From the IMG/VR virus record IMGVR_UViG_2778261122_000001, positions 1 to 61,573 of that record: DNA of 61,573 nt. One strand, 5' to 3'. The notes below the pieces were generated by a model. It worked only from the letters and a program-made list of their open reading frames with translations. It ran no database searches and was not told the origin of the DNA. The stretch's first letter is position 1. Each line of letters begins with the position of its first letter. The translations under genes were made by a program, and so were the position numbers. Below are positions 3,435-60,591 of the stretch, piece after piece. The stretch comes from a virus. Its lineage: Duplodnaviria; Heunggongvirae; Uroviricota; Caudoviricetes.

Positions 3435-5992
3435 CGCCCACCTCCGGAGAACAGACCACCATCACGCATCTGCCCGGTCACAACATCCATTGCCGCCTTA
3501 CGGGCTACGTCATAAACAGCCTTCAGCGCCTGTGGCCCTATCTGACCGTTCGTGCCGTCGTTGTTAATCACCACATGGTTATTCTGCTCAAACGTCCCGG
3601 ACGCCTGCGACCGACTGTCCGCCATGCTGCCCGGTGTACCGACATAACCGCCGGTGGCATAGCCGCGCATCAGCCGGTAAAGATTCCCCACGCCAATCCG
3701 GCTGGTTGCCTCCTTCGTGAAGACAAATTCACCACGGTGAACAATCCCCGCTGGCTCATATTTGCCGCCGGTTCCCGTAAATCCTCCGGTCGCAAAATGG
3801 AGTTTCGCCGCAGCTGCCTGAATGGCTGTACCGCCTGACGCTGATGCGCCACCACTGGCAGCACCGCCAATGGCGCTGCCGATACTCCCGACAATCCCCA
3901 CCATTGCCTGCTTAAGCAGAATTTCTGTCATCATGGACAGCACGGAACGGGTGAAGCTGCGCCAGTTCTGTTCACTGCCGGTCAGCATCGCCGCCATATT
4001 CTGTGCAATACCATCAAAGGTCTGCGTGGCTGCACTTTTAACCTGCGACATACTGTCCGTGGCGCTCTCTTCCCACTCACTCCAGCCTGACCTGAGGCCT
4101 GCCATCCAGCTCCCGCGAAGCAGGTCTTCAGCCGCCCAGGTCTTTTTCTGCTCTGACATGACGTTATTCAGCGCCAGAGGATTATCGCCATACTGTTCCT
4201 TCAGGCGCTGTTCTGTGGCTTCCCGCGCTGCCTGCCGGTCAGTCAGCCCCCGGCTTTTCGCATCAATGGCGGCCCGTTTTGCCCGTTGCTGCTGTGCGAA
4301 TTTATCCGCCTGCTGCGCCAGCGCATTCAGGCGCTCCTGATACGTGACCTTATCGCCAAGTGCAGCCAGCTGGCGTTTGTACTCCAGCGTCTCATCTTTA
4401 TGCGCCAGCAGGGATTTCTCCTGTGCGGACAGCTGGCGACGTTGTGCCGCCTCCTCCAGTACCGCGAACTGACTCTCCGCCTTCCACAAATCCCGGCGCT
4501 GCTGGCTGATTTTCTCATTCGCTCCGGCATGCTTCTCCAGCGTCCGGAGTTCTGCCTGAAGCGTCAGCAGGGCAGCATGAGCACTGTCTTCCTGACGATC
4601 GCCCGCAGACACCTTCACGCCGGACTGTTTCGGCTTTTTCAGCGTCGCTTCATAGTCCTTTTTCGCCGCCGCCATCAGCGTGTTGTAATCTGCCTGCAGG
4701 ATTTTCCCGTCTTTCAGTGCCTTATTCAGTTCTTCCTGACGGGCGGTATATTTCTCCAGCGGCGTCTGCAGGCGTTCGTAAGCCTTCTGCGCCTCTTCGG
4801 TATATTTCAGCCGTGACGCTTCGGTATCGCTCTGCTGCTGCGCATTTTTGTCCTGTTGAGTCTGCTGCTCAGCCTTCTTTCTCGCGGCTTCAAGCGCAAG
4901 ACGGGCCTTTTCACGATCATCCCAGTAACGCGCCCGCGCTTCATCGTTAACAAAATAATCATCCTTGCGCAGACTCCAGATGTCGTCCGCTTTCTTAAAC
5001 GCAGCCTCTGCCTTAATCAGCATCTCCTGCGTGGTATCAGGACGACCAATATCCAGCACCGCATCCCACATGGATTTGAATGCCCGCGCTGTCCTGTCTG
5101 CCCAGGTCTCCAGCGTACCCATGTTCTCTTTCAGGCGGCGGGTCTGGTCATCAAACCCTTTCGTCGCGGCCTCGTTCGCCGCCTGCAATGCCCCGGCTTC
5201 ATCGCCGGAACGCTGCAACTGAGCAACATACGCAATCTGCTCCGCCGTCACGTTATGGAACTGACGTGCCATCGCTGTCAGTCCCGACGTCGGGTCTGTG
5301 GTCAGCTTCCCGAAGGCTTCAGCGACCTTGTCCACCTCCACGCCGGATGCAGAGGAGAAACGCGCCACACTCTGGCTGATCGCCTCAAACTGCTCACCAC
5401 CACGCACACCTGCATTCACCAGCGCCGTCAGTGACTCGCTGGTCTGGTTAAACGTCAGCCCTGCCGCCTGCCCGGCTCTGGACAGGACCAGCATACGATC
5501 TGCCGTCAGACCCGACTGATTGCCGGAAAGGACCAGCGTTTTGTTGAAATCGGACAGGGTTGAGTTGCCCTGATACCAGGCATACGCCAGCGCACCGGTC
5601 GCCACCGCCAGCGAGGTGGCCCCGACCATCGGCAGGGTGATCGCACCGGCAAGCCCTCTGAACATGGGGATCATCCCGCCGAAGGAGTCCTTCACCTGAC
5701 CACCCTGTTGCAGCAGGATCAGCCACGGACTTTGCCCGCCTGCAAGCTGCGTGGCCACGTCGGTGAACTGCGCAGGCAGCATACGCATGGCGGCTTTATA
5801 CTGCCCGACGGAAATCCCCGCTTTCTGTGCAGCCAGTGCCTGTCGGCTCAGCGACTGTTCAACGACTGCCGCTGTTTTTTTCGCATCACTTTCCGTACCG
5901 GAAAAATGACGCCTGACTCTGGCCATCTGCTCGTCAAATCTGGCCGCATCCAGACTTAAATCAACGACCAGATCGCCTACCGGTTCAGCCAT
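3431..5992 (-). CDS. H: Tail tape measure protein H
   Basis: 853 aa, same length as lambda gpH; long coiled-coil middle, Gly-rich C-terminus. Confidence 0.9.
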   Translation of the reverse strand: MAEPVGDLVVDLSLDAARFDEQMARVRRHFSGTESDAKKTAAVVEQSLSRQALAAQKAGISVGQYKAAMRMLPAQFTDVATQLAGGQSPWLILLQQGGQVKDSFGGMIPMFRGLAGAITLPMVGATSLAVATGALAYAWYQGNSTLSDFNKTLVLSGNQSGLTADRMLVLSRAGQAAGLTFNQTSESLTALVNAGVRGGEQFEAISQSVARFSSASGVEVDKVAEAFGKLTTDPTSGLTAMARQFHNVTAEQIAYVAQLQRSGDEAGALQAANEAATKGFDDQTRRLKENMGTLETWADRTARAFKSMWDAVLDIGRPDTTQEMLIKAEAAFKKADDIWSLRKDDYFVNDEARARYWDDREKARLALEAARKKAEQQTQQDKNAQQQSDTEASRLKYTEEAQKAYERLQTPLEKYTARQEELNKALKDGKILQADYNTLMAAAKKDYEATLKKPKQSGVKVSAGDRQEDSAHAALLTLQAELRTLEKHAGANEKISQQRRDLWKAESQFAVLEEAAQRRQLSAQEKSLLAHKDETLEYKRQLAALGDKVTYQERLNALAQQADKFAQQQRAKRAAIDAKSRGLTDRQAAREATEQRLKEQYGDNPLALNNVMSEQKKTWAAEDLLRGSWMAGLRSGWSEWEESATDSMSQVKSAATQTFDGIAQNMAAMLTGSEQNWRSFTRSVLSMMTEILLKQAMVGIVGSIGSAIGGAASGGASASGGTAIQAAAAKLHFATGGFTGTGGKYEPAGIVHRGEFVFTKEATSRIGVGNLYRLMRGYATGGYVGTPGSMADSRSQASGTFEQNNHVVINNDGTNGQIGPQALKAVYDVARKAAMDVVTGQMRDGGLFSGGGR

Positions 5993-7982: not shown

Positions 7983-8557
7983 CGCTTTATTACCATCCTC
8001 AGTTGATGCTGCAGCGCATAGCCCAGCTCTTTCGGAAGACGCTCACGCCGTATCCGCTCAATATTCTGTTTAAACGCCGTGGTCAGCGGCACCGCCATCG
8101 GAATTTTCACCACATCAATGGGGTAACGGTTTTTCCCGGCCACACGCTGCATGACATGCCAGCGGCCATTTTTCAGTTGCTGAATAAACGCGCCGGGAAT
8201 ACGACGGTTTCCCACCACAAGCACACTGCCGCCACCTTTCAGGGCTGAACGCTGCCCCTTTTTACGACGCCTGCGTCGGGACAGGACAACCCGCGCGTTA
8301 CCCAGCCTGATTACGGGCAAATCCCCCCGGTTAACCTTGATTCTGGCCTGCGGATTTTTGACCGTGGCCCTTTTCAGCCTGGCCCTTTCCTTTACCAGTT
8401 TCCGGCGTACCTTTGTCTCACGGGCAACCTGTGACGCCGACTGCGATATCGCGGATGAAGCAACGCGGTTAATGGCCATTGCTGCGGCACCAGGCACCGC
8501 CGTTTTGCTGATACGGCTGAGGTTTTCAACGGCCTGCTCAAGACCTTTTATGGCCAT
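7979..8557 (-). CDS. Z: Tail completion protein Z
   Basis: 192 aa, lambda gpZ size and position. Confidence 0.9.
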   Translation of the reverse strand: MAIKGLEQAVENLSRISKTAVPGAAAMAINRVASSAISQSASQVARETKVRRKLVKERARLKRATVKNPQARIKVNRGDLPVIRLGNARVVLSRRRRRKKGQRSALKGGGSVLVVGNRRIPGAFIQQLKNGRWHVMQRVAGKNRYPIDVVKIPMAVPLTTAFKQNIERIRRERLPKELGYALQHQLRMVIKR

Positions 8558-20078: not shown

Positions 20079-21131
20079 TTATTTCCCCACCAGCTCGTTT
20101 ATCTCTTTCACTGTCTGGTTAAACCGCTCTGACTCAAGCTCAACACCTAAGGCCCGACGCCCCAGCGCCATTGCTGCTTTTATTGTGGAACCGGATCCCA
20201 TAAAAAAATCAGCAACCAGATCACCAGGTCGACTACTGGCATTGATTATTTGCCTGAGCATATCCGCCGGTTTCTCACACGGATGTTTACCCGGGTAGAA
20301 CTGAACGGGTTTATGCATCCAGACATCGGTATAAGGCACGGAGACTGATACGGAGAAATAGCGCCGGAGAGATTTAAACTCATCCAGCAATTCAGAATAT
20401 TTGCGATTCAGTGAATCATAAGATGCCACCAGCTGGTGGTGTGGTTGTTCCAGTTGTTGTTCCTGAAACTTCTCTGCCGCTATACGGGAAAACAGTGCCT
20501 GTAACTTCCGATAGTCAGCCTCATTCGGCAACTGCCACTGACTGGCACCAAACCAGTGGGAAACCATATTTTTCTTACCTGTGGCTTCGGCAATTTGTTT
20601 TGCCGTTATACCCAGTTCGGCACGAGCATCCCTGAAATACGATATCAGCGGTGCCATTATGTGCTGTTTGAGTTCCCTTTCTTTTGCCGCATAGCTGTCA
20701 CTTTTGCCGCGATATGGCCCCTGGTAATGTTCAGCAAACAGAACGCGCTCTGTGGCAGGAAAATATGCGCGCAGACTTTCTTTATTACACCCATTCCAAC
20801 GTCCGGACGGCTTCGCCCAGATGATATGGTTAAGCACGTTGAAACGTTCACGCATCATAATCTCAATATCAGATGCCAGGCGATGCCCACAGAACAGGTA
20901 AAGGCTTCCGGCAGGTTTCAATACCCGCCAGAACTGGGCCAGACAGTGGTCCAGCCACTTAAGGTAATCTTCGTCCCCTTTCCACTGATTGTCCCAACCG
21001 TTGGGTTTCACCTTGAAGTAAGGCGGATCGGTAACAATCAGGTCAATGGAATCATCAGGCAGGGACTGAATAAAATGCAGGCAATCAGCGTTGATTAAAT
21101 CAACACTGTTTATTTTTACAGTATTTTTCAT
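20079..21131 (-). CDS. DNA methyltransferase (amino-MTase, DPPY motif)
   Basis: DLIVTDPPY near N-terminus and FFMGSGST AdoMet motif near C-terminus (motif IV before motif I). Confidence 0.8.
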   Translation of the reverse strand: MKNTVKINSVDLINADCLHFIQSLPDDSIDLIVTDPPYFKVKPNGWDNQWKGDEDYLKWLDHCLAQFWRVLKPAGSLYLFCGHRLASDIEIMMRERFNVLNHIIWAKPSGRWNGCNKESLRAYFPATERVLFAEHYQGPYRGKSDSYAAKERELKQHIMAPLISYFRDARAELGITAKQIAEATGKKNMVSHWFGASQWQLPNEADYRKLQALFSRIAAEKFQEQQLEQPHHQLVASYDSLNRKYSELLDEFKSLRRYFSVSVSVPYTDVWMHKPVQFYPGKHPCEKPADMLRQIINASSRPGDLVADFFMGSGSTIKAAMALGRRALGVELESERFNQTVKEINELVGK

Positions 21132-22429: not shown

Positions 22430-23692
22430 CTATATATCCCAGATCTCGCCATTATAAAGATGCTCGCTAATCTTTGGTGGATTTTTCTTAACATTAGGGT
22501 GACTCGCCAAAATGAGTCTTAATGTCCTGATAGCAACATAGGCCTTTATAACAATATCCCTTTGTTGTTTGAAATACTCCTGATTGAAGTTATTGTTATC
22601 GATGGCATGTGCTGGTTTTTGTCTAAGTTGCCTTACCTTTCTAAAGGTGTCAATCATATCTTTAACTGGCGCAGGATCTGTTGGCTGGAAATATTTATCA
22701 AGCCATGACTCAAGTATTTGTATAGTGCCTTTAGGCCTTACGACTATTTTCCCATCCTCGCGCTCCTCTTCAATTTCAAGCTCCACATCATCCTCGAAGA
22801 ATTTCTTATTAAGATTGTCGGACATCATTTTATCCAACAAAAGCATGAAATTATTAAATTCTGAACGAGTTGGTCGCAAAAGAAACCCGAACTCTTTAGG
22901 CATGTCATCGCTGTAATCTTTTCTAAAAAGTTCAGCCTTTCCTATTAACACGCTCATTTTATTAATTATTTTAAGTTCTTCCGTAAATGCACTAAAAATA
23001 GAAATTTTAGTCCCCCAAGCTCCTAATATGCTTGCAGCATAGTAATCGGGATGCAACTTTATATCTCCTTTTACTTCTTTCGCTGCCCAAACATTTTGGT
23101 GTTCAGGACTGAGATCACTCAGGTATCTCAAGAAAACTGCAACATATCTATTTAGACTGTCATCATAAGCAAACCCAAATGTTTTAAGCAATATTTGATC
23201 GTGTTCAGGAATATTGTCTGATTCATAATACTCATCCGTAATAGATATTTCCCCATGTATAAAGTCTGTAAAGTATGAATAACGTGGATCATTTCGGTAG
23301 TATTCCAAAACAGACAAATCAAAAGTTCTATAGTCAAATTGTCCCGCACCTCTTGCTAGCTCCATTTCATATGGTGACTTACTATAAGCAGAAAGCTTAC
23401 TAGATTTGGCTAGCATATTTTCATGGGGATATAAGCATATGTAATCTAAACTCTCTGAATCATCGAAATTCTTAAGGATATTATCCTTGGGGATTTTTGA
23501 AAACGCTTTAATATGAGGGTTATCCCCAAAACAAGCAGTTAAAATATCATCTTCGATTCCTTTTCTAACCAAAACTTTGAAAGTTTCGCTTTTGATATCG
23601 AAAAGACCATCTAACTTATAAATAGGCAATCCATTAAAATCACCTGATGAAAAATATTGTTCCTCGACTATTTCATATATTTCTTTAATCAT
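22430..23692 (-). CDS. Hypothetical 420-aa protein in AT-rich insertion downstream of Q
   Basis: Long uninterrupted ORF with AT-rich codon usage unlike flanking genes; no motif recognised. Confidence 0.6.
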   Translation of the reverse strand: MIKEIYEIVEEQYFSSGDFNGLPIYKLDGLFDIKSETFKVLVRKGIEDDILTACFGDNPHIKAFSKIPKDNILKNFDDSESLDYICLYPHENMLAKSSKLSAYSKSPYEMELARGAGQFDYRTFDLSVLEYYRNDPRYSYFTDFIHGEISITDEYYESDNIPEHDQILLKTFGFAYDDSLNRYVAVFLRYLSDLSPEHQNVWAAKEVKGDIKLHPDYYAASILGAWGTKISIFSAFTEELKIINKMSVLIGKAELFRKDYSDDMPKEFGFLLRPTRSEFNNFMLLLDKMMSDNLNKKFFEDDVELEIEEEREDGKIVVRPKGTIQILESWLDKYFQPTDPAPVKDMIDTFRKVRQLRQKPAHAIDNNNFNQEYFKQQRDIVIKAYVAIRTLRLILASHPNVKKNPPKISEHLYNGEIWDI

Positions 23693-26290: not shown

Positions 26291-26671
26291 TCAGGCGGCT
26301 GCACCCGCCGTTTTCTCGTACTTACTGATAGTTATCTCGACCTTCCCTTCCGGGATAACCGGTCCCCACTCCACCAGCATTCTTTTCACCTGGCTGTCGT
26401 CTTCCCACACACCCGCGTGGGTCAGGGCGTCAAACAGCGCCTTGTTATAGTTGTCCAGATCGCGGATCCGGTTATCCGGAGGAAACAACACGATCTCCAC
26501 TGAAGCAGGTGCCGACGTTGGTTTCGGCAGACGATGTAACTGCTCAACTATTGCTGTGCACGCCGCACTCTGGAATTTTCGCCCCGCCGCGCTTATCAGG
26601 CTCTTACCAGCAAATGCCCCTTTGTTGGGGTAGGTGTTCACGCTGGGTGGAAAAGGCAGAATCAGCGTCAT
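26291..26671 (-). CDS. rusA: RusA-family Holliday junction resolvase
   Basis: 126 aa with the RDLDN catalytic motif and RusA-like size. Confidence 0.75.
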   Translation of the reverse strand: MTLILPFPPSVNTYPNKGAFAGKSLISAAGRKFQSAACTAIVEQLHRLPKPTSAPASVEIVLFPPDNRIRDLDNYNKALFDALTHAGVWEDDSQVKRMLVEWGPVIPEGKVEITISKYEKTAGAAA

Positions 26672-26994
26672 ACTTTCAGCCCCCTCTCATGTAACCAGTG
26701 GGCTGCACGCAGCCTGGCGTTTTCCTCACCAGCAAGCAGTGCGCGGATAATCCCGGCCGCCTCGCTGTCGTCGTCCTTCACCGCGGTATGAAGCGTGATG
26801 CCCCGGGCCACGCCACGCTTTATCGTGATGACGCCTTTTTTCTCCAGTGCGCGAAGATGCTCCACCGCTGCATTCACTGAACGGTATCCCAGCATGGTAG
26901 CCACCTCCTGATTGGTTGGCGGGAAGCCACGTTCTTTCTGGTAAGAAATCAGCATATCCAGCACCTGCTGCTGGCATTGAGTTAACGTCGTCAT
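26668..26994 (-). CDS. LexA N-terminal-type DNA-binding domain protein without peptidase domain
   Basis: Start trimmed to MTTLTQCQQQVLDML; GFPPTNQEVATMLGYRSVNAAVEHLRALEKKGVITI follows the LexA winged-helix pattern; ends at ~108 aa. Confidence 0.65.
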   Translation of the reverse strand: MTTLTQCQQQVLDMLISYQKERGFPPTNQEVATMLGYRSVNAAVEHLRALEKKGVITIKRGVARGITLHTAVKDDDSEAAGIIRALLAGEENARLRAAHWLHERGLKV

Positions 26995-27245
26995 TAAGCC
27001 CCCACGTAATTCCCTGACAGATACCACTCTTCACCCGATGCAGCGCGCTTGCTGCTTTTCCGTAAGCACCGCTCACGATGCGCCAGAAAATTGTTTCGTT
27101 CTGGCTGGGAGTGGCTTTCACGGAATGCCTCCATCCACACCGTTGCAGCACGACGGTATAAACCCCTGGACTCCAGTTCTTCAGCATGGCGGGTCAGGCA
27201 CAAAATCACCCGGGGGTCGTTAGTGCCGACATAGAAATTGCGCAC
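26994..27245 (-). CDS. Hypothetical protein
   Basis: 83-aa ORF, stop/start overlap with neighbours. Confidence 0.35.
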   Translation of the reverse strand: MRNFYVGTNDPRVILCLTRHAEELESRGLYRRAATVWMEAFRESHSQPERNNFLAHRERCLRKSSKRAASGEEWYLSGNYVGA

Positions 27246-27481
27246 AGGTCTGGTTTCACAAACTGGTTCCGCTCCTGCGATATCTCAGCCTGGCGCGGGA
27301 AATGTCTGCGTGTATCCTCTTCACAACGGTGAGCCACACGCCCACTCTGACGTAACTTGCTTGCTGACTGCAGAACTCGCTGCCGTGAGTAACCTGCAAA
27401 AGCATCCGCAATGTCTCCGGAAGTACACCCCGGATGGGCTTCAATGAATTTCTGAACGTCATTCAAAAGGCTCATGATCAC
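27206..27481 (-). CDS. Hypothetical protein
   Basis: 91-aa ORF in operon context. Confidence 0.35.
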   Translation of the reverse strand: MIMSLLNDVQKFIEAHPGCTSGDIADAFAGYSRQRVLQSASKLRQSGRVAHRCEEDTRRHFPRQAEISQERNQFVKPDLCAISMSALTTPG

Positions 27482-28419
27482 CCCCTGAATCCTGCCGGGA
27501 TCTGGCTGTAGTCCACATTGTCGTAACTGGCTTTGAAGTACGGGTCTTCGCGTTTTTCTGTGTACGTGCTGACGGACGGCGATAAGCGCAGGGAAAGTTC
27601 ATCCCATTTTTCCCGCAGCTTCGACGGGCTGAACACGTTACGGCACCAGAACGGGTCGCGGCTGACGCGGCTGTACATCTCGCAGATTTGTTTGTGGGTA
27701 CGACCGTCCTGTACACACATCAGGCGAATTTCATTTGCCCAGGCTGTCCAGTTCGGTTCTTTGGGACGAACCACCTCGCCGTCACATTCGGCGGCCTGCT
27801 CGTACAGGGCGATGATTTTTTTCCAGAGCCACTGTGCGCAGGTCAAATCATCCTGCGTTCCCCACTGGCGCTTTTTAGGGCTGAATACAACCGCATCAGG
27901 ATGGCGAGTTAAAAAATCCTGTTCAGCCTTCTGCATGTCCGGTTGCGAAGCGTCCGGACGAGAAGGTTTTTTATCTGACGGATCATGTTTTGATTTTACT
28001 GACGGATCCCCGCCAGATTCTGACGGGTGAAAACCCGCTTTTTTGCCAGATTTCGACGCATCAAATTTTGACGGGTCAGATTTTGATGCGTCAGATTTTG
28101 ACGGGTCAGAATCTGACAGTTGAGAAAATGCCGCTGCCTGAAGCTTCGCAACGTTAAGCTGATAAACATTCGACGCATTGCGGTTACCCTGGCGACGCGC
28201 CTTACGCGTTAACCAGCCTTCTGCTTCCAGCCGTGCGATAGCCGTTCTGACGGTGCTCATCCCCGCGCCAATCTGGCGGGCAATGGTTTCAATTGATGGC
28301 CAGCACACACCTTCGTCATTACTGAAATCAGCCAGGCGGGCCATAATTGCCACGCTGGATAACTTCATGCCTGACGCAGCGCAACCATCCCATACATAGC
28401 CGGTTAATTTAGTGCTCAT
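27478..28419 (-). CDS. Replication initiator protein (origin iterons inside the gene)
   Basis: 313 aa; N-terminal HTH-like region, linker SDPSKSDASKSDPSKFDASKSG encoded by the DNA iterons; lambda-O-like architecture. Confidence 0.65.
   Translation of the reverse strand: MSTKLTGYVWDGCAASGMKLSSVAIMARLADFSNDEGVCWPSIETIARQIGAGMSTVRTAIARLEAEGWLTRKARRQGNRNASNVYQLNVAKLQAAAFSQLSDSDPSKSDASKSDPSKFDASKSGKKAGFHPSESGGDPSVKSKHDPSDKKPSRPDASQPDMQKAEQDFLTRHPDAVVFSPKKRQWGTQDDLTCAQWLWKKIIALYEQAAECDGEVVRPKEPNWTAWANEIRLMCVQDGRTHKQICEMYSRVSRDPFWCRNVFSPSKLREKWDELSLRLSPSVSTYTEKREDPYFKASYDNVDYSQIPAGFRG
27970..28130. repeat. Origin iterons: about eight direct repeats of a ~15-16-bp unit (ATTTTGACGGGTCAG-like)
   Basis: Visible tandem units gattttgacgggtcag, attttgatgcgtcag, attttgacgggtcag, aatctgacag inside the replication gene. 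Confidence 0.7.
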
Positions 28420-29665: not shown

Positions 29666-30358
29666 ATGAACATAGGAAACCGAGTCAGACAACTTCGCCA
29701 AGCGAAGAACATGAAAATCGCCGATCTCGCTGAAGCAATAGGAGTAGATGCGGCGAACATCTCGCGCTTAGAAACGGGTAAGCAGAAACAATTTACCGAA
29801 CAAACACTGAGTAATATTGCCAAGAGCTTAGGTGTTGATATTGCTGATCTCTTTACCTCTGCCCTCAAAAGCAATACTGTATATAAAAACAGTAATGATG
29901 AGGATGTTGCGCAGGTGAAGGATGTGTTCCGTATTGAAATGCTGGATATCAGTGCCAGTGCGGGAAATGGCCTTATCCAGGGCGGTGATGTCATTGATGT
30001 GATTCATGCCATCGAATACAGAACTGATAATGCTGTATCAATGTTCGGCGGACGACCAGCCAATCACATCAAAGTTATCAACGTTCGTGGGGACAGTATG
30101 TGTCCAACCATTGAGCCAGGAGATCTCATCTTCGTTGATGTCAGCATCAATCAGTTTGATGGTGATGGTATATATGTCTTTGGTTTTGATGACAAAATAT
30201 ACGTTAAAAGACTTCAAATGATTCCTGACAAACTGCTGGTGATTTCTGATAACCAGATTTACCGTGAATGGGGAATTACTAGCGAAAACGAACACCGATT
30301 CATGGTCTTTGGAAAGGTCTTAATCAGTCAGTCGCAAACCCTTAAGAGACATAATTAA
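29666..30358 (+). CDS. cI: CI-type prophage repressor (HTH plus S24 LexA-like autopeptidase)
   Basis: N-terminal HTH; C-terminal GDSM Ser and VKRL Lys of the S24 dyad. Confidence 0.85.
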   Translation: MNIGNRVRQLRQAKNMKIADLAEAIGVDAANISRLETGKQKQFTEQTLSNIAKSLGVDIADLFTSALKSNTVYKNSNDEDVAQVKDVFRIEMLDISASAGNGLIQGGDVIDVIHAIEYRTDNAVSMFGGRPANHIKVINVRGDSMCPTIEPGDLIFVDVSINQFDGDGIYVFGFDDKIYVKRLQMIPDKLLVISDNQIYREWGITSENEHRFMVFGKVLISQSQTLKRHN

Positions 30359-34727: not shown

Positions 34728-35024
34728 TTAACGGATCAACAGCCAGACCAGCAGACACACCACCACTGGCACAGCAAAATCCAACAAACTTCCCACATCC
34801 CACACGCGTGGATCAAAACCGCCCCACCACGGCATATTCATACGCTTGCCATGCCCGAACATTTCTATCCAGCGATATTCTGCCTGGGTGTGTTCTCGGG
34901 ATATAAAAAACACACACCCTATTACAGCCCCAGTTATCGGATCATTAAATAAACTCAAAAACAGAAACTGTAGCGATAATGATATTAGCACATGAATGAA
35001 ATGAGATATGTCCATACTTACCAA
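34728..35024 (-). CDS. Hypothetical small membrane protein downstream of tailspike
   Basis: 98-aa ORF with about three hydrophobic segments. Confidence 0.35.
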
Positions 35025-36676
35025 CTCAAAAGAATATTTACATCACCTACGCTAATAGGATTTGGAGTGACATTTTGAAATGTTACCCTGACGATATTAT
35101 CGGAAACAGCAATAGCATCTGAAATTATACCTATTGGGAGATCATTCAACACTGTCATTTGTAGAGGAACTTCATTAGATATGATATATCCGGTCAATGT
35201 TCTTTGCATTGAGAACCTGCCACTTGCTGAAATCGTGCCAACATTCAACGTTGATTTTACTTTCTTTCCTGAATATGTAACACCATTCAAATCTATATGT
35301 GAGTTATTTATTAATGTCAACGCAGAATATCCTGAAAAATCACTATTAGCCCCGGCCTGCCTTACTACAGAGAATTTATCAGCTCGTATTGCAAAGTCAC
35401 CAGTTGCTTCCGATGCATTAATGTTATTGGTAACAACAACACCTCCATCAACACAGTTAATAGCATATGTTGCATTTCCTTTTATCGTTATGTTTCTTAA
35501 ACTTAAATAAGATGCAAACTGGCATGTGGCAAAAGCAATTGCTCCATCTGATAGATACCCATCTGAAAATTCAACAGACGAAGAATACCTTGATCCTATA
35601 CACGATTGAGTTCTCGGTTTAAAAATAGATCCGCCTTTAATATAACAATCCGCCGCATGCTCAACCTTAAGAGAGTCTTCCCCTGAATTGTAAGAAGTGA
35701 ATTCTGTGCCCCTCACGCTTGCACTGTACACACATTCAAGGGAAATATTAGCATTTGATATATGAACCCCATTAACCCCAAACTGAGATCCAGAGCCAGA
35801 AACAAGAACTCCACAAACAGAGCCTCCATTTACAATCAAATTGTTTGCATCCCAAACTACGCAACTACCACATTGTGAATCAGGGTAGTATCCACCTCCG
35901 ATAATGAGTCCGTAATCACCATCTGTTTCAACAGCAACATTTTTTATGCTGTATATATTTGATCTAAATTGTATTCCTTTTGTTGTTTTTATTATGGAAT
36001 TTATTGGTTTTGCCACAACCCCGTTAACTGGGCCTGAAATTATACCATTGTGACTCATATCCAATGTTAAAACATTTCCATCCTTGGAAATTATCATCGC
36101 TCCACATGAAATGTCTCTCCTGCCAGAAAGTATACAATATTTACCAACATGAAAATTATCTGCATTCTGAACAGAAACTTTAAATATACCAGTCAACACA
36201 TCATAAGAAACATCATATACATTAACAGGACTATAATCCACACCCAATATATTCAGAGGAATATTATCAAACTCATCATAATGTGAATAACCATCAGGAA
36301 TGTGAATATACTGCCCGTATTCTATCTGTGATCTAAGCTGATCGGGATCGTACTTCAGCACATTAGGAAAATAGAACTGCTGTGATCCATATGCATCGTA
36401 CACAGCCATAGAATGCCCTTGTACAGTAACGAACTTAGCAATCTGTCCGTTATATACTGGATACCCTGCGGCATTGATGACGATTGGCTGTGCAACAGGA
36501 ACGTGAGAACCATCTTCGTTTTCTACATAAACCTGAATCTGGTTTTCTGGATTTACCGGGTCAGTATCAATTTTACCGATATAAATTTTGCCATTGGCTA
36601 CGGCTTTAAAAGAACGCGCCATAGTGAAGAGTTGCGATGGCATCGATACGATCACATTGGCTGTAATGTCTGTCAT
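35018..36676 (-). CDS. Tailspike protein with P22 gp9-type N-terminal head-binding domain
   Basis: First ~110 aa ([43 protein letters not shown]) match remembered P22 gp9; remainder divergent. Confidence 0.85.
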
Positions 36677-50027: not shown

Positions 50028-52226
50028 TTACTGCTGTGGTTGTTGCTGAGTTGATTTTTGCAGGATGCTGCTGATGTCCATGCGCTGCGCATGACCCTGT
50101 GCCTGACTTTTCAGGACAAGCTCTGCATCAGCACGGGCATTGTCTCCTTGCTGTTGCTGGAACTGTCCGAGCAGTTTCAGAGCCTCGCGGATATCAGATT
50201 TCTGCTGACTATCGGCAGATGCGAGTATTTTCACAACATTTGCCGCTGCAACCTGAGCATCAGTCTGTGCCTGGAATGCTTTAACCTGAATGGCTGCCTG
50301 TTCGTTCTGCGCTTTCTGCAATTCAGCCTGACCAGCAAGAAGCTGACCTTGCGCAGCAACCATAGCCGGATCTGGCTGACTGGCCTGTTGTTGTTTCGCC
50401 TGCTCAACCATCTGCTGTTCTTCTGGTGTTCTCGGCTTGATAACTCCAGACAGAAGCAACTGATTGCGGTTGTATTCTTTAAGGTCGTCCATCCCTTCAC
50501 CGTCCATATTGTCGAGAATCATCGACGATACAAGGTCGTGCTTCGGCGTTCCTGGTGGGATAAGTGCCAGCATGGAAAGTAACGACTTAACCGTTGCATC
50601 ACGGCGAGTAGCGAACGACTGACCAACATCGACAGTCACTTCATAGTTACCCTGCGAAAGGTCGTTAAGCGCGATAACCTGCCCTGTCTGACGGTCAACC
50701 ACTTCACCAGTCATCAGCGCCACGTCATCGCTGCCGTCCTCATTAACGATACGCATCGGCGTATCACTGCCATAGACCTCACGCGCCATAGAAAGCCACA
50801 CGACGCCAGCGCGGCGCATGGATTTAGCCATGTTGTCCATGTAGATATAGGACTGCGTGTCCATCCGGTTAAAGATGCTATCAACGGTATCGGTGGCGAC
50901 GTTGCTCGGCATGTTCTCAAGCTGCGACGCACCTGTAATTTGCTGAATAGCCGTTCCGGTGTACTGCAATAGCCCGGCAAGAGCAGGAGGCATTTGTGTC
51001 GGAGGTGTATAACTGCTGACCTGAGCCTGCGCAGTAATATCTCCGTTTTTGTTTTTCAGACTTACCATCGGCAGGAACGCCGGGCGCTTTTTGTTGCGCT
51101 CCGCCCAATTATTGGCGAGAGGACCAGGAATCATGTCAACATCAACTACAGGAATGCCATCACCGCCAGCCTGAGTAGCGTTATCTGCAATCATGGAAAC
51201 CATCAGGTTCTCAAGACGCTGTGCATCCATCGCTTTTGCTGCGTGGCCTTCGATTCGCTCCTGATTATCAACAAATGAGCGACGCCCATATACCGGGATG
51301 AGAGGAATATGTTCGCCCGGAATACGCTTCGGTTCTTCCAGCCATTCAGCGCCAGACAGAAGACCGCAATAAACGCGGCGTTTCTTCACCGTTCGCTCGC
51401 CAATCAGTTCGAATGCACCATCGGTCAGCTCGTCGACAATATCTTTGATTTGCTCTTCATCATAGATTGCTGTTTCTCCGCTGACAGGATTGCGCCACGC
51501 CGTGAGCTTCACCTTCTCTATGCGAACTTCGTAGTAGCGTCCAACATAGATGGCATCGGGCGTTGACCAGTCATACTGAGCACCAGTGTCATCACGAGAA
51601 AGGCTTGCCGCGATGGAATCAGGATATTCAGTCTCGAACGCTTTAGGCGTCATGGAGAACATTTCCATAGCCCACATAGCATCAGAGCGGTCATATTGCT
51701 TGCTGTCCTGATCGAAGAAGACGCATGTCGCTGGGTCGTAAACCGGGAGAAGGCTGATGCGGCGCTGCTCGTTACTCGGATCCATTTCATCTTCGTAATC
51801 GGCACACATGCGGAAACAACCGAATCCGCCCGTTACGGCATCATCAAATGCGTTATCACACGCTTCGCCACCGGATGTTTCCTGATAGTCAGCGCGGAAT
51901 TTGCCGTTCATCTTTTCGGCTAACGCTTCCGATGCCTTGTCGTCCTTCGGCCTGAATTTAACGCTGATGCGATTCTGTCGATACTCGCCAATGATGCGAT
52001 CACATTCACGGGCAATCTTATTCAGTTCAAAGCGCGGGTAATGCTCAAACCTGCCTTCATCAAATGAGTAACCAGCGTTTGTGCTGCCTTCCCACTGTGC
52101 GCCGGATACCCGGACGAAACGTTGAGCCTCAATAATCTGCTCACGCATATCCTGCGTTGCTGACCAGGCATTATCAAAGTTGCACAGCACCTTGCGATGC
52201 CAGTCAGTCATCTTTTTTTCTTCCAT
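50028..52226 (-). CDS. Portal protein (P22 gp1 type)
   Basis: 732 aa; C-terminal Gln-rich helical barrel region. Confidence 0.85.
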   Translation of the reverse strand: MEEKKMTDWHRKVLCNFDNAWSATQDMREQIIEAQRFVRVSGAQWEGSTNAGYSFDEGRFEHYPRFELNKIARECDRIIGEYRQNRISVKFRPKDDKASEALAEKMNGKFRADYQETSGGEACDNAFDDAVTGGFGCFRMCADYEDEMDPSNEQRRISLLPVYDPATCVFFDQDSKQYDRSDAMWAMEMFSMTPKAFETEYPDSIAASLSRDDTGAQYDWSTPDAIYVGRYYEVRIEKVKLTAWRNPVSGETAIYDEEQIKDIVDELTDGAFELIGERTVKKRRVYCGLLSGAEWLEEPKRIPGEHIPLIPVYGRRSFVDNQERIEGHAAKAMDAQRLENLMVSMIADNATQAGGDGIPVVDVDMIPGPLANNWAERNKKRPAFLPMVSLKNKNGDITAQAQVSSYTPPTQMPPALAGLLQYTGTAIQQITGASQLENMPSNVATDTVDSIFNRMDTQSYIYMDNMAKSMRRAGVVWLSMAREVYGSDTPMRIVNEDGSDDVALMTGEVVDRQTGQVIALNDLSQGNYEVTVDVGQSFATRRDATVKSLLSMLALIPPGTPKHDLVSSMILDNMDGEGMDDLKEYNRNQLLLSGVIKPRTPEEQQMVEQAKQQQASQPDPAMVAAQGQLLAGQAELQKAQNEQAAIQVKAFQAQTDAQVAAANVVKILASADSQQKSDIREALKLLGQFQQQQGDNARADAELVLKSQAQGHAQRMDISSILQKSTQQQPQQ

Positions 52227-57817: not shown

Positions 57818-58441
57818 CTAACGTGTGACTGCATTCAAAATATTGTCTGCAATTGACTCTTCCTTGTGGCATTGCACCACCAGAGCGTCATACAGCGGCT
57901 TAACAGTGCGTGACCAGGTGGGTTGGGTAAGGTTTGGGATTAGCATCGTTACAGCGCGATATGCGGCGCTTGCTGGCATTCTTGAATAGCCGACACCTTT
58001 GCATCTTCCGCACTCTTTCTCAACAACTCTCCCCCACTGCTCTGTTTTGGCTATATCAACCGCACGGCCTGTACCGTGGCAATCTCTGCATCTTGCGCCC
58101 GGCGTCGCGGCACTACGGCAATAATCCGCATAAGCGAATGTTGCGAGCACTTGCAGTACCTTTGCCTTAGTATTTCCTTCAAGCTTTGCCACACCACGGT
58201 ATTTCCCCGATACATTGTGTGCAAATTGCATCAGATAGTTGATAGCCTTTTGTTTGTCGTTCTGGCTGAGTTCGTGCTTACCACAGAATGCAGCCATTCC
58301 GAATCCGGCTTGTGATTGCGCCATCCCCATAGCAGCCATCACATCAGTACCGGAAAGAGAGTCAGAAGCCGTAGCCCGTGGTGAGTCGCTCATCATCGGG
58401 CTTTTTGGCGAGTGAAATTTAGCTACGCTTTCGAGTCTCAT
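57818..58441 (-). CDS. Q: Late antiterminator Q (lambda type)
   Basis: 207 aa, near-identical to remembered lambda Q. Confidence 0.9.
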   Translation of the reverse strand: MRLESVAKFHSPKSPMMSDSPRATASDSLSGTDVMAAMGMAQSQAGFGMAAFCGKHELSQNDKQKAINYLMQFAHNVSGKYRGVAKLEGNTKAKVLQVLATFAYADYCRSAATPGARCRDCHGTGRAVDIAKTEQWGRVVEKECGRCKGVGYSRMPASAAYRAVTMLIPNLTQPTWSRTVKPLYDALVVQCHKEESIADNILNAVTR

Positions 58442-60047: not shown

Positions 60048-60184
60048 AGGTGAGCCGTGTAGTTGAAGGTTTTTACGTCAGATTCTTTTGGGATTGGCTT
60101 GGGTTTATTTCTGGTGCGTTTCGTTGGAAGGTATTTGCAGTTTTCGCAGATGATGTCGGTGATACTTCGTCGCTGTCGTCTCAT
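60008..60184 (-). CDS. ninE: NinE-like protein (coordinates approximate to within a few nt)
   Basis: Hand translation [34 protein letters not shown] matches remembered lambda NinE; below ORF-track cutoff. Confidence 0.5.
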
Positions 60185-60591
60185 TCGTACCTCCTGTCGG
60201 TAAACCTGACACCCTGACCAATAGCCCAGGCTGTTGTGTACTCGATCAGACTTGCCATACGCTTCACGCTCATCTGCGCGCTGCTTTCGCGAATGTTGAC
60301 GAATTCGCCTTCAAGGCCGCGCAAAACATCAGCTTCCTGTTTTGTTGCCACTGCATGACCGCTAATCAACAAAACCTTCCATTGTTCTGGTTTTAACCAT
60401 TTGCCGCACCATTGAACCTGACGAGCGATATCCGCCAGCATCGCGTGAAATTTTGCGTTCTGGTCAAGGTTGCGCTTGTAGTCAGTAATGCGGATGGTAA
60501 CTGGCTTGTCTTTATCGAGTGGTGTTGCGAGGATGGCGTTGATTGCGGCTTGCTGTTGTTGCTTACTTCGGAGGAAGATTGTTTGCTTCAT
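60181..60591 (-). CDS. ninB: NinB recombination protein
   Basis: 136 aa, NinB-like pattern and position. Confidence 0.7.

Follow-up and report, generated by a model that had tools for sequence, protein, structure and literature searches.

The gene at positions 26668..26994 on the minus strand of the window (the whole 61,573-nucleotide stretch of DNA that was analyzed) was found to encode the DNA-binding head of LexA joined to a predicted helical tail of its own, with no autoprotease domain. We tentatively propose that the phage makes this product during lytic growth as a RecA-proof surrogate for LexA, a reading to which we assign a probability of roughly 0.4. Speaking for this proposal were the LexA-specific identity of the domain, the retention of four of the five contact residues of LexA, the conservation of S39 and N41 among relatives, the repression reported for the isolated N-terminal fragment of LexA, a conserved tail under purifying selection, the position of the gene in its operon, and the SOS box as the one palindrome in common with the locus of a 42%-identical homologue. 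Speaking against it were the E44V substitution, the variation at residues 42 to 45 among relatives, the precedent of the phage protein gp6, and a set of candidate phage targets none of which was tied to the gene.

The reading frame (108 aa plus stop) begins with ATG, and its product reads MTTLTQCQQQVLDML...GYRSVNAAVEHLRALEKKGVI..., as taken from the list of open reading frames and the sequence. A Shine-Dalgarno ribosome-binding site, GGGGG, was read from the sequence at 26999..27003 on the minus strand, where it precedes the ATG by 4 nt. The upstream ORF ends in a stop codon that has one base in common with the start of the LexA-like gene (TAATG), and the stop codon of the LexA-like gene is overlapped by the start of rusA over 4 nt (ATGA). 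A 119-aa ORF starting from GTG at 27027 was also considered and was rejected; GGGGG precedes the ATG at 26994, and both PGAP and the phage records give the 108-aa form. PGAP names the identical 327-bp ORF "LexA family protein", and the ORF matched PF01726 and PHROG 362 as well. An earlier note on this DNA had claimed that a LexA DNA-binding domain of about 108 aa is encoded alone at 26668-26994, and the intact minus-strand ORF with a full PF01726 domain bore this out.

To judge from its alleles, the LexA-like ORF is a real, functional gene. The frame was intact in 48 of 48 distinct nucleotide alleles (81 copies), and most of the polymorphism was synonymous, the tail included. The pN/pS ratio across the 48 alleles was about 0.04, a value that is biased downward because the loci were selected via protein identity. 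These data bear on the idea that the gene is a decaying, functionless remnant of a captured lexA gene, which we consider highly improbable. It is true that residues 86 to 90 of the protein (LLAGE) align with the VAAGE cleavage region of LexA, which suggests descent from a full-length gene. However, decay was effectively refuted by the selection data, that is, by the intact frame in all 48 alleles and by a pN/pS of about 0.04 that includes the tail. Also at odds with decay were the presence of the gene in 41% of complete E. coli genomes in up to four copies and the conservation of the tailed family down to 40% identity. The A88-G89 dipeptide is placed by the model where a helix ends, in a protein with no catalytic domain; because the AGE of LLAGE is not conserved among the tailed relatives, LLAGE is not a functional cleavage site.

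The gene proved to be common. Of 5426 complete E. coli genomes, 2233 contained it, under the annotation "LexA family transcriptional regulator", and it was also found on at least 582 IMG/VR contigs. The protein was encoded at 95-98% identity by about 50 phage genomes on deposit, among them those of SfV (orf42), SfII, SfIV, mEp460, phi-cdtI, and Stx2a, Stx2c, and Stx2k phages, and the gene adjoined rusA in most of these records. One annotation in the phage records reads "LexA DNA binding domain protein". Residues 1-108 matched profile positions 1-106 of 106 of PHROG 362, a phage "transcriptional repressor" family (E=1.2e-58), and the gene was found in the nin-region context next to rusA that goes with this family. 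The bare finding is not new because the gene is common and already labeled in databases; as an observation, a gene that is already called LexA-family or LexA DNA-binding-domain protein is ordinary. A literature search returned no functional study of this enterobacterial LexA-like family, and the names rest on annotation. The "bully phage" effect of phi1720a-02 was considered and set aside, as it has been attributed to Cro and not to this gene.

Of the 11,543 proteins that a profile search of 1.8 billion representatives returned at E<=0.001, the best 150 included many short ones. Among the listed matches, many short proteins (P0127, P0128, P0133, and P0148, for example) contained two tandem LexA_DNA_bind-like stretches or had N-terminal extensions, which suggests a large unexplored diversity of LexA-head-only proteins.

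The head spans residues 1-69 (26788..26994, minus strand) and was assigned to the LexA-type winged helix-turn-helix by AF2, Foldseek, and phmmer, with a numbering that is co-linear with that of E. coli LexA. In the AF2 model of the protein (mean pLDDT 77.5), the head contained helices at residues 6-22, 28-35, and 40-52 and wing strands at 56-58 and 66-68. The Pfam profile PF01726 (LexA_DNA_bind) was matched over positions 1-65 of 65 with E=2.9e-19 and 69 bits, against a cutoff of 23.7. A search of solved structures with phmmer gave best matches that were all LexA (1lea, E=8e-16). Foldseek superimposed the head onto 3jso_B, the DNA-bound LexA of 3JSO, with an rmsd of 1.3 A over 68 columns at 50% identity, and other winged-helix families scored far below LexA. 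A generic winged helix was thus rejected, with LexA the top match by both sequence and fold, far above the MarR, MntR, and GntR-type matches. The Pfam, TIGR00498, PDB, and Foldseek results favored LexA, so the earlier observation of a LexA-type winged helix was correct and did not reflect a generic resemblance.

The rest of LexA was missing. Only positions 1-91 of 203 of the lexA equivalog model TIGR00498 were matched, and the 67.7 bits fell below the cutoff of 110.95. The 108-aa protein had no PF00717 (S24 peptidase) match, it lacked the Ser/Lys dyad of a TIGR00498-type LexA repressor, and its C-terminal end was reached at residue 108. In line with the earlier note, the protein ends before the autoprotease domain.

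What follows the head is a flexible linker at residues 70-74 (26773..26787, minus strand), which was modeled with low confidence (AF2 pLDDT <50 at 71-73), and then a predicted two-helix hairpin at residues 75-108 (26671..26772, minus strand). The hairpin was modeled as a block with a pLDDT of about 84, with helices at 75-88 and 93-102, and it stands in the position of the S24 domain of LexA. In the close family the tail was near-invariant at I82, L86, L87, W100, and L101, among other residues, and relatives at 40-49% identity also carried a helical tail. The 34-residue tail, which the earlier note did not mention, is therefore predicted to be a conserved helical hairpin rather than a mere truncation. 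LexA is known to dimerize via its C-terminal domain and to read its operators as a dimer (PMC3159453). In the LexA-like protein, the hairpin may provide the dimerization that LexA takes from that domain.

The alignment with host LexA, which the earlier note had put forward as a check, showed 51.5% identity between residues 1-68 of E. coli LexA and residues 1-68 of the phage protein, with no gaps (BLASTP, E=1e-22). The start of the recognition helix, residues 39-47 (SVNAAVEHL; 26854..26880, minus strand), was located with alignments and published contact residues. The DNA-contacting residues of E. coli LexA are Ser39, Asn41, Ala42, Glu44, and Glu45 (PMC3091678). Four of the five (S39, N41, A42, and E45) were retained in the phage protein, and the fifth, E44, was replaced by Val. 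Other changes relative to LexA were P40 to Val and R28 to Asn; the wing residues R64-G65-I66 were kept, and N41, A42, A43, E45, and H46 were identical to LexA in this lineage. The earlier claim that the recognition region follows LexA "residue for residue" was therefore overstated: S39, N41, A42, and E45 conformed to it, whereas the overall identity of 51% and the E44V, P40V, and R28N substitutions did not.

Among tail-bearing relatives at 40-49% identity, no acidic residue occurred at position 44, which was V, A, T, F, L, or Y. S39 was invariant and N41 nearly invariant in this group. About half of these relatives kept the N-A-A-x-E-H motif, and the remainder were also altered at position 42, 43, or 45, as in NTIAGH and NAVLLH. 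The family-wide variation in the helix looks like diversifying specificity rather than the tracking of an invariant host operator. The pattern cuts both ways: in its reading helix this lineage is near LexA, but taken together the family resembles a phage regulator that is diversifying more than it does a strict mimic of an invariant host protein.

These findings raise the possibility that the protein is a diverged, phage-specific regulator, like gp6 of phage GIL01, which would act at one or a few operators in its own genome, activate or repress a phage promoter, and have no direct effect on the host SOS regulon. We view this explanation as nearly as likely as a LexA surrogate. The family-wide loss of E44 and the variation of residues 42 to 45 among tailed relatives argue for it, as do the gp6 precedent itself and the many carrier phages that had no SOS box near the gene. 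The pace of divergence pointed in the same direction. In the locus L081, a 44%-identical homologue lies after the replication genes, with RusA immediately downstream and DUF968 and Q further on; there, the LexA-like gene had diverged faster than its neighbors (44% identity versus 71% for RusA and 64% for DUF968), so that it appeared to evolve faster than either. On the other hand, this lineage keeps N41, A42, A43, E45, and H46 exactly as in LexA, and no repeated or conserved palindrome other than the SOS box was found in the prophage or in diverged loci.

That palindrome search covered several kinds of sites. As an alternative operator in the prophage, we found no 5-mer palindrome with at least four copies and no 6-mer palindrome with at least two. 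Short inverted repeats near the LexA-like gene consisted only of origin iterons and chance pairs. The only palindrome common to the prophage and the locus of a 42%-identical homologue was the SOS box, ACTGT-N8-ACAGT, and no palindrome besides the SOS box was shared with the diverged loci. These negative results weigh little against a phage-specific regulator because a single operator would escape such scans. In the locus of the 42%-identical homologue (L083, GCA_011752865.1), two strong SOS boxes were present, at 3560-3579 and 8164-8183. One was intergenic, between an RNase-toxin/immunity moron and an 82-aa ORF that precedes the LexA-like gene, and the other followed a lysozyme gene.

Roughly the first 34.4 kb of the window belong to a lambda-like prophage, and the LexA-like gene is located in its nin region. 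The gene order is cI-like, cro, CII-like, O-like, yfdN/PerC, LexA-like, rusA, KilA-N, DUF968/HNH, and Q, with all genes but cI on the minus strand. The cI-like repressor gene with an S24 domain lies at 29666-30358 (plus strand), and the O-like replication gene lies at 27478-28419 (minus strand) with the origin iterons inside it. The latter are four repeats of the GTCAGATTTTGAC type, arranged as inverted pairs at 28055-28117, which resemble the iterons of a lambda-like replication origin. Directly upstream of the LexA-like gene is a yfdN/PerC-family gene (26994..27481, minus strand), which is split into two overlapping ORFs of 91 aa and 83 aa and whose stop codon overlaps the LexA-like start. 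The split corresponds to a 7-bp deletion near 27255, as compared with the intact 164-aa gene of E. coli FCI55. In most related phages a dam methylase gene is found between yfdN and the LexA-like gene, and dam was absent from this window. Downstream is rusA, a Holliday-junction resolvase gene (26291..26671, minus strand; PF05866). In the 80 fetched loci, the block cII, O, yfdN, (dam), LexA-like, rusA, KilA-N, and DUF968 was conserved, and cI/cro and Q were variable.

Between the O-like gene and rusA, the coding strand had no promoter-like signals above chance in a scan that was insensitive, as it also missed PR and PRM, and it had no terminator-like site. Because neither an above-chance promoter nor a terminator was found from the replication gene to rusA, we infer that the LexA-like gene belongs to the PR early-right operon. 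For its late genes, this prophage has a Q antiterminator. A 420-aa ORF between Q and a methylase gene (22430-23692, minus strand) had no match in Pfam, PHROGs, or PADLOC and is a possible moron. A search for membership in a defense system yielded only a marginal CARF match. A second, P22-like prophage directly adjoins the lambda-like one at about 35000-61573 of the window, with a tailspike head-binding domain (35018-36676), a P22 portal (50028-52226), a Q-type antiterminator (57818-58441), NinB (60181-60591), a Bro-N protein, and a large terminase. ARAGORN found no tRNA genes in the window, and related prophages adjoin tRNA-Thr by proA.

The constant company of rusA (RusA was present in 80 of 80 loci carrying the LexA-like gene) might indicate a role other than that of a transcription factor. 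In such a case, the protein would be a DNA-binding accessory of the linked recombination or replication functions, for example one that targets or modulates RusA. This explanation, which we consider improbable, is in keeping with the 4-nt overlap between the LexA-like gene and the rusA start and with the synteny with rusA and DUF968, which is preserved around homologues that are 42-44% identical and also where RusA belongs to another clade. In the 42%-identical case, for instance, the homologue follows the replication genes and is separated from RusA by a 67-aa ORF, with DUF968 and Q beyond. However, six loci that carry the cI-internal SOS box described below had no LexA-like match covering at least half of the protein, and five of the six kept RusA at 93-95% identity. 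Since these five geneless loci still carry RusA, RusA does not need the LexA-like protein. In addition, the fold is that of a sequence-specific repressor domain, and linkage in the nin region often comes without functional coupling.

If the protein acts as a LexA surrogate, SOS boxes are its expected sites. The window contained three matches to CTGT-N8-ACAG, two of which were outstanding when scored with a weight matrix. The matrix was built from E. coli operators, of which the umuDC sequence alone was verified, and no shuffled sequence reached a score of 18.

The stronger box, TACTGTATATAAAAACAGTA (29875-29894, unstranded; score 26.7), lies inside the cI-like gene, in the part that encodes the linker between the HTH and S24 domains of the repressor, and it is a candidate target only. 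It is identical at 20 of 20 positions to the chromosomal umuDC operator, which was recovered beside umuD in at least 4792 genomes. All 18 loci that had this cI allele contained the box, which also occurred in at least 120 IMG/VR stretches. When 12 cI alleles were compared, both 6-nt arms were invariant, the spacer varied, and the surrounding 39 bp contained 12 variable sites, including non-synonymous ones; the invariance of the arms had a hypergeometric p of about 0.004 (calculated by hand).

The plus strand at the box reads TTTACC-17 nt-TACTGT, an arrangement that we take to resemble the geometry of the umuDC promoter. The box could be a roadblock to cI transcription or part of an internal, LexA-gated promoter. 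A consensus scan found no internal promoter at the cI box, a result that is uninformative because the scan also missed PR and PRM. A literature search turned up no paper on an SOS box inside cI. A umuDC-identical operator that is conserved in a prophage repressor gene is, in our opinion, the most intriguing by-product of the analysis.

The second box, CACTGTTTATTTTTACAGTA (21104-21123, unstranded; score 22.3), covers codons 3-9 of an N6/N4 DNA methylase gene (20079-21131, minus strand) that lies downstream of Q, and it too is a candidate target only. About 25 of the 80 loci contained it, a count near that of the loci with the methylase gene (22), and it travels with the methylase module rather than with the LexA-like gene. 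Within 10 kb of the LexA-like gene, no SOS box was found in about 35 of the 80 loci. Conversely, of 54 loci picked by the cI box alone, 48 had the LexA-like gene and 6 lacked it. A partnership between the gene and the SOS boxes was thus not supported, as the boxes follow the cI and methylase modules, about 35 of 80 loci are boxless, and 6 of 54 are geneless. The proposal in the earlier note that CTGT-N8-ACAG boxes be sought in the prophage led to two strong boxes, yet across phages these were unlinked to the LexA-like gene. Candidate targets thus exist in the prophage, host LexA would bind them too, and none is tied specifically to the LexA-like protein.

As a LexA surrogate, the protein might work as follows. 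It would be synthesized from the early rightward (PR) transcript only, after inactivation of the prophage repressor or on infection, and it would bind CTGT-type palindromes or SOS boxes. Removal by RecA*-stimulated autocleavage or by the proteolysis that follows it should be impossible, because the protein has no catalytic domain and is assumed to lack the C-terminal ClpX degron that cleavage exposes on LexA 1-84. During lytic growth, repression would then be kept or re-imposed at strong LexA operators of the host, of co-resident elements, and, in some phages, at SOS boxes of their own. The N-terminal fragment of LexA is reported to bind SOS boxes and repress even on its own, and cells for this reason remove it with ClpXP (PMC10584840). 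A stable, dimerizing version should therefore repress. The idea in the earlier note that a non-cleavable LexA-like binder could hold SOS boxes during induction is thus plausible.

The wider reading, in which this common prophage gene supplies a RecA-proof, self-dimerizing LexA mimic that re-closes the tightest LexA operators after induction and thereby uncouples the lytic program from the host SOS state, is doubtful. If it were true, the targets would include late-SOS genes of the host such as umuDC and sulA, LexA-controlled rivals such as colicins and antirepressor-type prophages, and, in some phages, their own umuDC-identical cI operator. Should the protein bind SOS boxes, an uncleavable LexA surrogate that is switched on during prophage induction would be present, in one to four copies, in nearly half of all E. 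coli strains, which would bear on the extent and duration of the SOS response in induced lysogens. The processes affected would include umuDC mutagenesis, sulA filamentation, colicin release, and competition among co-resident prophages. The biology of Shiga-toxin phages would also be concerned, as Stx2a, Stx2c, and Stx2k phages carry the gene. If the protein instead has an operator of its own, it would be an uncharacterized regulator in one of the best-studied groups of phages, and with GIL01 gp6 there would then be two independent cases of phages that re-purpose the LexA head.

The closest relatives of the protein in the databases, the PHROG 362 and PGAP entries such as SfV orf42, are the same protein at 95-98% identity and represent allelic variation, and most of them have dam just upstream. 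With the N-terminal domain of E. coli LexA (1LEA and 3JSO), the phage protein has in common the winged-HTH fold, 51% identity over residues 1-68, and R64-G65 of the wing. It differs from LexA in that the S24 domain, Ser119/Lys156, and the cleavage-site hairpin are all absent and in that it has a helical tail of its own. Moreover, the phage gene sits in an early operon, whereas lexA is autoregulated from an SOS promoter.

The host also makes an isolated LexA DNA-binding domain, namely, the autocleavage fragment LexA(1-84). That fragment is an unstable ClpXP substrate with no dimerization element, whereas the phage protein ends in ...ERGLKV and has a conserved tail. The ClpX signal on LexA 1-84 is the new C-terminus that cleavage exposes. 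The fragment is reported to bind SOS boxes and to repress to some extent, and its degradation by ClpXP is needed for full induction (PMC10584840). The LexA(Ind-) mutants (such as G85D and S119A; 1JHF and 1JHH) offer a functional analogy, a LexA activity that RecA* cannot remove, but these are full-length point mutants that dimerize via the S24 domain, which the phage protein lacks.

The only characterized precedent is GIL01 gp6, which likewise consists of a LexA DNA-binding domain that lacks the protease part and is made by a phage from an early operon. The gp6 protein is 44% identical to its host LexA, binds a different palindrome (GaCACA..TGTGtC), and activates a late promoter, with activators of its type acting at a site that overlaps the -35 element; our palindrome scans of the prophage and the diverged loci gave no candidate for a late-promoter site of this kind. 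At 66 aa, gp6 is tailless and derived from a Gram-positive LexA, whereas the enterobacterial protein is tailed. No BLASTP alignment between the two was obtained at E<=100, and by eye they had only the general LexA-domain pattern in common. In its recognition helix, the protein described here is much closer to the LexA of its host than gp6 is to its own. In view of the differences in length and tail and the lack of any BLASTP alignment, the two are independent derivations of the same idea.
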